Source of the DNA: a virus | DNA length: 26,660 bases | UHGV virus genome: UHGV-0256785 | Reading direction: 5' to 3' (one strand) | Part shown: positions 4,319 to 4,640 of the stretch, piece by piece | How the letters are laid out: each line of letters begins with the position of its first letter | Position numbering within the stretch: position 1 is the first letter of the stretch | Notes under the pieces: model-generated | The model's database searches: none | What the model was told of the DNA's origin: nothing | What the model saw: only the letters and a program-made list of their open reading frames with translations | Translations under genes and position numbers: made by a program

Positions 4319-4397
4319 ATGTGTGTATCATTATTTCTGTATTTCATGAATAATAGAAATTTATACATATATTTACGAATATTGACACAGTTTTTAA

Positions 4398-4425
4398 TTG
4401 AAAAAGTATCTGTCCTCATTAATAT
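4398..4425 (+). promoter_or_regulatory. candidate sigma70 promoter for the tRNA pair, in a very AT-rich stretch
   Basis: TTGAAA at 4398-4403, 16 bp spacer, TAATAT at 4420-4425; alternative -35 TTGACA at 4382-4387; ~60 nt upstream of the first tRNA. Confidence 0.3.
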
Positions 4426-4486
4426 TCCCTGCGGTTCCAAGGGAGATGTAAAGCGCGGTCATTTTTATTTTTCCTGAGGAACCAAT

Positions 4487-4562
4487 GCCGACTTAGCTCA
4501 GCAGGTAGAGCAACTGACTTGTAATCAGTAGGTCACCAGTTCGATTCCGGTAGTCGGCACCA
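4487..4562 (+). tRNA. tRNA-Thr, anticodon UGU (76 nt, CCA encoded)
   Basis: Cloverleaf read by hand: acceptor GCCGACT/AGTCGGC, D-arm GCTCAGCAGGTAGAGC, anticodon stem ACTGA/TCAGT with loop CTTGTAA (TGT at 4520-4522), T-loop TTCGATT, 3' ACCA; one A-C mismatch in the T-stem. Confidence 0.75.
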
Positions 4563-4565
4563 TAT

Positions 4566-4640
4566 GCGGGTATCGTATAATGGCTATTACCTCAGCCTTC
4601 CAAGCTGATGATGCGGGTTCGATTCCCGCTACCCGCTCCA
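4566..4640 (+). tRNA. tRNA-Gly, anticodon UCC (75 nt, CCA encoded)
   Basis: Acceptor GCGGGTA/TACCCGC, anticodon stem TCAGC/GCTGA with loop CTTCCAA, T-arm GCGGG-TTCGATT-CCCGC, 3' TCCA; matches from memory the host glyT-type tRNA-Gly(UCC) except in the acceptor stem. Confidence 0.85.

Follow-up and report, generated by a model that had tools for sequence, protein, structure and literature searches.

A tRNA-Thr(UGU)/tRNA-Gly(UCC) pair with conserved flanking RNA structures as a candidate autonomous cassette of a lambdoid prophage

The tRNA pair and its host counterparts

The stretch of DNA considered here is UHGV virus genome UHGV-0256785 (26,660 nucleotides (nt), hereafter the window), in which two adjacent genes, tRNA-Thr(UGU) and tRNA-Gly(UCC), lie between a candidate promoter with a leader hairpin on the 5' side and a structured trailer on the 3' side (Table 1). 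The initial annotation had proposed two tRNA genes 3 nt apart, with these anticodons and both encoding CCA, and each of these points was recovered. Indeed, ARAGORN calls exactly two tRNA genes in the whole window, both on the + strand, with the anticodons tgt and tcc; software rejection or reassignment of the anticodons was not seen. The encoded CCA triplets are found at 4560-4562 (Thr) and 4638-4640 (Gly). Given the E-values of the corresponding Rfam tRNA matches (3e-14 and 2e-12, for a gathering score of 29), neither gene is a chance match.

Both genes are close to those of Escherichia coli K-12. The tRNA-Thr is identical to thrU at 75 of 76 positions, the only change being U16 to C in the D-loop, and its anticodon arm (ACUGA CUUGUAA UCAGU) is that of host ThrU. 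The tRNA-Gly had been described as almost the host glyT sequence apart from the acceptor stem. This description is accurate, as 73 of 75 positions are identical to K-12 glyT and both differences fall at the acceptor-stem pair 6:67, where C6:G67 is replaced by U6:A67, a compensatory change. The identity set of threonyl-tRNA synthetase (ThrRS), i.e., G1:C72, C2:G71, G35 and U36, is complete in GCCGACU...AGUCGGCACCA and is the same as in thrU, while that of glycyl-tRNA synthetase (GlyRS), i.e., U73, G1:C72, C2:G71, G3:C70, C35 and C36, is complete in GCGGGUA...UACCCGCUCCA. From their sequences, both tRNAs look fully functional. In the K-12 tRNA gene set, glyT is the only UCC gene. Likewise, thrU is the only UGU gene of this strain (PMC12445682).

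In the host, these genes belong to the thrU-tyrU-glyT-thrT-tufB operon. In our comparison, the flanks of the prophage pair showed no homology to this operon, and tyrU and thrT are absent from the cassette. Simple capture of the host operon together with its flanks is thus unsupported. Moreover, in a Photobacterium genome, Thr and Gly genes of almost the same sequence lie 8 nt from each other; hence, near-identity to the E. coli genes is no proof of capture from E. coli, and another species may have been the source.

The distribution of the pair was surveyed with a pattern matching the Thr/Gly junction, the anticodons being ignored. Among the matches listed, the fused pair was found in more than 120 IMG/VR contigs, and it was also found in genomes of Escherichia, Shigella, Citrobacter braakii, Enterobacter hormaechei and E. 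ruysiae. Public annotation (GenBank phage records, RefSeq E. coli genomes) already lists a tRNA-Thr followed by a tRNA-Gly at the same position; as a kind of feature, the tRNA pair is already known, common and widely annotated in E. coli lambdoid prophages. One E. coli-type cassette was found on a short contig of a myxobacterial assembly (Corallococcus exercitus, L015; 423 nt, coverage 0.67), which is most likely a contamination.

The spacer is TAT in 130 of the 136 surveyed fused pairs. The commonest Thr allele is exactly thrU (71/136) and the commonest Gly allele exactly glyT (64/136), so that the phage-specific acceptor-stem variant put forward by the initial annotation does not hold as a general feature. 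The window alleles represent sub-lineages instead: C16 occurs alone in 7 copies and together with C20 in 28, and the exact U6:A67 tRNA-Gly in 40. U6:A67 mainly accompanies the two-gene cassette. Larger arrays mostly carry the host-type C6:G67 tRNA-Gly; more than 60 surveyed loci have the order Met/Ile-like(CAU), Lys(UUU) or Arg(UCU), Thr(UGU) and Gly(UCC), ending in the same Thr-TAT-Gly pair.

Some thrU-type bodies have switched anticodons. A G35 to C change yields the anticodon UCU in the "tRNA-Arg" of phage SerU-LTIIb (L001, 1122-1197), a gene also altered at positions 24 and 31, and a G35 to U change yields UUU in two copies of a "tRNA-Lys" (Met, Lys, Lys, Gly arrays, e.g., L085). Because G35 is a ThrRS identity element, the charging of these variants is uncertain. 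Besides, the ARAGORN anticodon of the second tRNA in the larger arrays (L007-L135) varies by locus (ttt, tct, taa, aaa or undetermined), which may reflect repeated anticodon remodelling in these arrays.

Candidate promoter, leader and trailer of the pair

A promoter belonging to the pair had been proposed in an AT-rich stretch upstream. This stretch spans about 170 nt, with a GC content of 0.18-0.29 over 4250-4449, and the block 4320-4430 contains several conserved -35-like hexamers, namely TTTACG (4372-4377) and TTGACA (4382-4387) in addition to TTGAAA (4398). When 20 distinct upstream classes were aligned (mean column identity 64%), the -10 pattern T-A-x-x-A-T was invariant and the promoter spacer was not conserved. 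Since the sequences of this alignment had been trimmed at TTG by eye, the comparison was repeated without that bias on 18 non-redundant upstream classes (<85% identical), anchored on the GGTTC motif of the leader. Conservation then showed two peaks and no others, TTgaAA and ttATtaT, at a fixed and correct spacing. This comparative footprint supports a dedicated sigma-70 promoter, predicted to drive the tRNA cassette from TTGAAA (4398) and TAATAT (4420). Hence, the proposal of an own promoter gains support, but TTGACA at 4382, probably the hexamer meant by the initial annotation, is not the predicted -35 element, as it is kept as a sequence without a conserved -10 partner.

The late promoter PR' itself was considered as the promoter of the tRNA genes and ruled out, a PR'-like promoter and a tR'-like terminator being found directly after the antiterminator gene Q, at 1858-1971. 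In the window, the PR'-like promoter lies 2.5 kb away from the tRNA promoter. In another locus (L002), a terminator-like hairpin after Q, which is read as tR', lies about 150 nt 5' of the tRNA promoter. Accordingly, the candidate promoter of the pair and PR' are two different elements. The larger four-tRNA arrays have yet another promoter (TTGCAA, 17 nt, TATTAT), located about 9 nt from the first tRNA. As for the contexts of the cassette, it follows the methylase gene in the window and in L004; in L002, Q and a tR'-like terminator immediately precede it. Such varied placement and a terminator of its own (a closing stem and a U-run in 68 loci) agree with a moron, an autonomous promoter-gene-terminator unit inserted in a phage operon.

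The transcript would begin with a conserved hairpin (GGUUCY...GARGAACC), which starts at about the predicted transcription start and stops 3 nt before tRNA-Thr. Its minimum free energy is -20 kcal/mol (z = -4.28). In a MAFFT alignment that was not fitted to the structure, 93.9% of the cells of nine consensus pairs are paired, vs. 21-72% when the partner columns are slid, and four pairs change on both sides. The covariation support for this hairpin is moderate. Neither a match in Rfam nor a U-run after the hairpin was found. A tR'-type terminator, as in phage 21, was thus ruled out for the leader, which lacks the U-run and is kept in lineages also devoid of an internal U-tract. The hairpin may be a regulatory site timing the production of the tRNAs.

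On the 3' side, an invariant GCACTG element is found 23-31 nt after the CCA of tRNA-Gly in 76 of the 136 loci, and in 68 of those 76 it is followed, 82-95 nt further on, by CAGTGC and a T-run. The other 60 surveyed pairs do not have the GCACTG element and carry a different trailer. Unconstrained folding of the window copy and of representative types (each <80% identical) gave the same architecture throughout (16/16 types), i.e., a closed helix P1 enclosing exactly three hairpins in a four-way junction, although the sequence of the internal helices varies between types. A covariance model built from 10 window-type sequences matches the window copy (4670-4770) with 115 bits and recovers divergent types at E-values of 1e-4 to 1e-2. 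In the covariance-model alignment, which was fitted to that model, 94.2% of the cells are paired, vs. 81.6% after shuffling and 39-52% after sliding; changes on both sides are seen for 19 of 29 pairs. RNAalifold applied to the raw MAFFT alignment misses P1-P3 through misalignment, whereas the per-sequence folds and the covariance model recover them. This RNA has no match in Rfam at E-values up to 5, and neither ARAGORN nor Rfam calls it a tRNA. Of 5426 complete E. coli genomes, 202 carry this element, either with no annotation at all or under an overlapping "hypothetical protein". Elsewhere in the window, a GC-rich branched structure at 3123-3226 on the + strand, just 5' of the methylase gene and directly after a terminator-like hairpin (3108-3125), gave a weak match to the covariance model (25 bits, E 0.004). 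This structure recurs in several loci (e.g., L004, 11924-12027). The match is marginal, and the structure is probably trailer-like in shape only.

At a minimum, the modelled structure and its U-run make the trailer the probable terminator of the cassette, and it could be a separate small RNA (sRNA) as well. A precedent is 3'ETS-leuZ, a functional sponge RNA derived from the 3' trailer of the glyW-cysT-leuZ precursor. It is possible, if on balance doubtful, that the prophage trailer represents a novel non-coding RNA family of phages, processed out of a tRNA precursor, with a function as sRNA, sponge or protein decoy instead of just that of a terminator; the cassette would then yield three RNAs. 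A stronger version, in which this RNA of about 100 nt (or the leader) is the main selected product and the tRNAs serve chiefly as processing handles, as for 3'ETS-leuZ, seems very unlikely. It would account for a four-helix architecture maintained in 16 of 16 diverged types through many compensatory changes, and for the constant spacing to the Gly CCA (23-31 nt). The trailer would also sit in a suitable neighbourhood, since prophage regions 3' of PR' are rich in Hfq-bound sRNAs (PMC8550237, PMC4104026). However, the different trailer of 60 of the 136 pairs speaks against it, a role as terminator sufficiently explains the structure and the U-run, and no match was found between the trailer and probes for the prophage sRNAs PasA, PasC and PasD with up to 3 mismatches. 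The conserved promoter, leader hairpin and four-way-junction trailer argue for the autonomy of the cassette and hint at a structured RNA that has yet to be described. The flanking RNA structures, rather than the tRNA genes, are what may be new at this locus.

The late-region setting

The gene content identifies the window (26.7 kb) as the late half of a lambdoid prophage. The location proposed by the initial annotation, on a prophage, is borne out by genes for a DUF968 protein, RusA, the antiterminator Q and a DNA methylase on the 5' side of the pair, and by holin, terminase, portal and tail genes on the 3' side. After the holins, the order is terminase, portal, ClpP/capsid fusion, tail genes and a J-like fibre gene. 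The pair thus lies on the late strand between Q/PR' and the lysis genes, as expected for tRNA cargo of a lambdoid late region.

Table 1. Features of the tRNA cassette and of the neighbouring part of the late region (window coordinates).
Feature	Position	Strand	Details
DUF968 protein	44-1093
RusA	1106-1477
Antiterminator Q	1458-1853	+	PF06530, E 2.5e-52
PR'-like late promoter	1858..1887	+	TTGACC, 18 nt, TATATT; promoter scan, 10/12 matches; adjoins 3' end of Q
isrK-family RNA	1894-1971	+	Rfam, 69.1 bits
tR'-like intrinsic terminator	1950..1971	+	stem 1950-1966, then T-run; ends the isrK-like short RNA
C4 antisense RNA	1997-2081	+	66 bits; a1b1 target match 1881-1934
Open reading frame (ORF) with ORF6N domain	2135-2347		3' of C4 antisense RNA
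N6/N4 DNA methylase	3272-4318	+
Candidate sigma-70-type promoter	4398..4425	+	-35 TTGAAA 4398-4403, 16-nt spacer, -10 TAATAT 4420-4425; predicted start ~4432
Conserved 5' leader hairpin	4433..4483	+	GGUUCC 4433-4438 pairs with GGAACC 4478-4483; then internal loop and second helix
tRNA-Thr(UGU), thrU-type, encoded CCA	4487..4562	+	ARAGORN; Rfam tRNA, 72.2 bits, E 3e-14
Spacer TAT	4563..4565	+	between the two tRNAs
tRNA-Gly(UCC), glyT-type, encoded CCA	4566..4640	+	ARAGORN; Rfam tRNA, 65.6 bits, E 2e-12
Conserved 3' trailer RNA, four-way junction	4669..4771	+	P1 AGCACU 4669-4674 / AGUGCU 4757-4762; U-run 4765-4771
Trailer inner helices (fold)	P2 4676-4693, P3 4694-4727, P4 4740-4756	+
Two holins	5201-5590 and 5568-5855	+

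Transfer RNA genes are common integration sites, and those of the window are nearly identical to host genes, which could have made them host chromosomal genes or attachment-site remnants at a prophage boundary instead of phage cargo. This reading is refuted and retains practically no credit: phage genes of the same strand lie on both sides, from the methylase (3272-4318) to the holins (from 5201), the flanks are unrelated to the host operon and tyrU is missing, both tRNA genes are complete, and sequenced phage genomes contain this fused pair as well.

By analogy with lambda, phage 21 and Shiga toxin (Stx) phages, the promoter at 1858..1887 would be the late promoter. The isrK match begins at the predicted start of this promoter (~1894), and the PR'/tR' layout after Q is the usual arrangement. 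Without Q, PR' transcription should stop at the tR'-like terminator in a lysogen; the tRNAs would then depend on their own promoter. Together with the ORF6N-domain ORF, the segment 1858-2081 (+) resembles an IsrK/C4-controlled antirepressor-type module within the late leader. Further downstream, about 430 nt of non-coding spacer (4772-5200, +) precede the holin genes and contain three strong terminator-like hairpins (5001-5020, 5049-5066 and 5160-5175). According to published work, lambdoid prophages carry Hfq-bound sRNAs (Pas, STnc100, anti-sRNAs) at the position of this spacer. At 4835-5030, outside the cassette, the Rfam comparison with STnc100 gave 28.6 bits, below the gathering score of 47.

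Codon supply, tRNA-targeting immunity and known systems

Taken together, the locus would be a self-contained transcription unit for two tRNAs, a late-region cassette of the moron type carried by a lambdoid prophage. From 5' to 3', its parts would be the sigma-70-type promoter, the structured leader, tRNA-Thr(UGU), the 3-nt spacer, tRNA-Gly(UCC) and the structured trailer with the terminator. Two routes of expression can be envisaged. On the one hand, the own promoter would be Q-independent and could act in lysogens and early after induction. On the other hand, Q-modified polymerase starting from PR' (~1858-1887) would, after induction, read through to the tRNAs and the lysis genes. As in established E. 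coli tRNA processing, maturation would rely on RNase P and 3' exonucleases. With identity elements and anticodon arms kept, the mature tRNAs would be charged and modified like the host species and would read ACA (plus ACG/ACU) and GGA (plus GGG). The most likely selected effect would be to supplement two minor tRNAs, the codons of which occur in the late genes at about twice their frequency in host core genes. We consider it somewhat probable that this account of an autonomous cassette supplying two minor tRNAs holds as a whole. The tRNA bodies are within 0-3 changes of thrU/glyT in the great majority of the 136 copies, and the upstream classes share a mean column identity of only 64%. That the bodies stay close to the host genes while the upstream classes diverge suggests purifying constraint.

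Codon compensation had been suggested by the initial annotation. Per 1000 codons, ACA is used 12.5 times in the late genes of the window vs. 5.4 in 42 K-12 genes, ACG 23.9 vs. 12.1, GGA 10.8 vs. 6.0 and GGG 21.1 vs. 9.2. With the codons grouped by decoding tRNA (wobble rules and gene copy numbers of K-12), excess demand is largest for Gly-UCC (+16.7), followed by Thr-UGU (+16.0).

Several observations weigh against the supply of minor tRNAs as the selected effect, or against the cassette as an autonomous unit. The host sample consists of 42 genes from one region, and the codons were grouped by tRNA species after the data had been seen. The late genes of lambda, which has no tRNA genes, carry nearly the same load as those of the window (ACA plus ACG, 36.5 in lambda vs. 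36.4; GGA plus GGG, 28.1 vs. 31.9). The codon demand is therefore real but a general lambdoid trait, and the codon argument is plausible but weak, as it does not discriminate. Only ACA is higher in the two compared carriers of Thr(UGU) genes, that of the window included (12.5 and 12.4, vs. 8.1 in lambda). Codon compensation as a specific explanation is weakened by the lambda control. This control illustrates that codon-usage arguments for temperate-phage tRNAs can convince without separating tRNA carriers from non-carriers. Moreover, the promoter scan alone is not significant (4 sites vs. 2.7 expected), some related copies have stem-breaking mutations or have lost CCA, so decay does occur, and the near-identity to the host genes could also come from gene conversion instead of selection.

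In an alternative reading, the tRNAs are functionally redundant passengers of a moron site prone to recombination, where gene conversion with thrU/glyT keeps them similar to the host genes, and they add nothing measurable to the fitness of phage or lysogen. In its favour, many copies are identical to host genes (the 71 Thr and 64 Gly copies mentioned above), some copies show decay, and lambda handles the same codon load without tRNA genes. In addition, the site is a known insertion hotspot (PMC4104026). However, the pair remains fused by TAT in at least 18 diverged promoter/leader classes and in several genera, with flanks about 64% identical. The promoter, leader and trailer are also conserved, with compensatory changes, which is hard to explain without selection on expression. 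This alternative is consequently regarded as quite improbable.

The main rival of a supply of minor tRNAs is counter-defence. Here, the cassette would mainly replenish, in a dosage-based manner, tRNAs destroyed or blocked by tRNA-targeting immunity, most clearly P2-OLD and, as a second possibility, toxSAS toxins of the FaRel2 type. P2-OLD aborts lambda infection, and its primary target is the host tRNA-ThrU(UGU), whose anticodon arm is amputated (Govande et al., PMC12445682). Phage Thr(UGU) tRNAs, including that of phage 21, rescue from P2-OLD, resistance requiring both an altered CNG motif and a shortened stem; overexpression of ThrU gives little or no protection (PMC12445682). As P2-OLD destroys this tRNA, many lambdoid Thr(UGU) genes are candidate counter-defence cargo. 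In the window, the Thr anticodon stem ACUGA/UCAGU keeps both CNG motifs (C28-U-G30 and C40-A-G42) as in ThrU, the CNG change linked to resistance being absent, and all five pairs from 27:43 to 31:39 are present, so that the stem is not shortened. The window tRNA-Thr hence shares the UGU anticodon with the resistant type (Thr6/Thr21) and neither of its resistance changes. Because its anticodon arm is identical to that of ThrU, it is predicted to be P2-OLD-sensitive.

Resistance-like alleles do occur among the surveyed copies. In five Thr alleles and in JLK-2012, on different allele backgrounds, G42U43 is changed to CC or UC, which breaks the pairs 28:42 and 27:43 and turns CAG into CAC or CAU. 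None of these changes is present in the window. They would fit the published two-factor rule for P2-OLD resistance and thereby lend some weight to counter-defence. Most surveyed Thr(UGU) genes, that of the window included, keep the sensitive host arm; together with the few 42/43 alleles, they form a testable natural series for P2-OLD. As for glycine, tRNA-Gly(UCC), like glyT, has C28-A-G30 paired with C40-U-G42 and an A37, so that the P2-OLD cleavage motif is formally present. Gly is not mentioned in the main text of the P2-OLD paper (PMC12445682).

FaRel2 would connect both tRNAs to immunity, as it selects precisely tRNA-Gly and tRNA-Thr through G1-C72, C2-G71, G4-C69 and R5-Y68 (Kurata et al. 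2024, PMC11559606). Yet both window tRNAs retain all four of these pairs, to which the pair altered in tRNA-Gly (U6:A67) does not belong, and FaRel2 originates in a Firmicute. The published determinants of P2-OLD escape and of FaRel2 escape were thus checked against the window alleles, and neither set was found. As far as its sequence tells, the window copy is not an escape variant for either of the two systems examined. Furthermore, the commonest phage-borne copies are exactly equal to the host sequences. The suggestion that phage tRNAs replace nuclease-depleted ones is consequently well founded for Thr(UGU) in lambdoid phages (PMC12445682), but it fits the window allele poorly, since the resistance determinants are missing and ThrU overexpression hardly protects. 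Altogether, counter-defence as the main role of the cassette is considered unlikely.

With the supply of minor tRNAs kept as the preferred reading, the cassette can be set beside known systems. It shares with thrU and glyT, the first and third genes of the K-12 operon, the anticodons, the anticodon arms, the discriminator bases, the first five acceptor pairs and CCA; it differs from the operon in that the pair is fused by TAT, without tyrU and thrT, and has an unrelated promoter, leader and trailer. Like 3'ETS-leuZ, the prophage trailer is a structured RNA with the operon terminator directly 3' of the last tRNA. There is no sequence relation between the two, the four-way-junction shape is distinctive to the prophage trailer, and the functional likeness is hypothetical. 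Thr(UGU) and Gly(UCC) are likewise encoded in T4-type clusters, both genes taken together being about 84% identical. However, these clusters belong to lytic phages, are larger and diverged, and their two genes are not adjacent (the match falls in two pieces over ~340 nt).

Similar arrangements are described in lambdoid phages. In phage 21 (OL657228), pR', QBE, SDPE, tR', tRNA-Asn and tRNA-Thr(UGU) are followed by the holin gene S21. As in the window, the tRNAs lie between Q and the lysis genes on the same strand, the anticodon is UGU, and a hairpin ends directly before the first tRNA. In contrast, tRNA-Thr21 belongs to another sequence lineage, there is no Gly gene, and the tRNAs come directly after pR'/tR' without a separate promoter. 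JLK-2012 combines a tRNA-Asn and a Thr chimera with the same tRNA-Gly as the window. In this chimera (L137, 2495-2570), the 5' half is of the phage 21 type and the 3' half of the thrU type. In Stx phages, the tRNA genes ileZ-argN-argO lie 5' of stx. Literature searches on these genes and on the Thr-Gly pair itself returned nothing usable. The four-tRNA arrays of the survey differ from the two-gene window cassette in their promoter and in a short GC-rich leader. Both ileZ-argN-argO and these arrays are late-region clusters of lambdoid phages that read rare A-ending codons, as does the pair described here.

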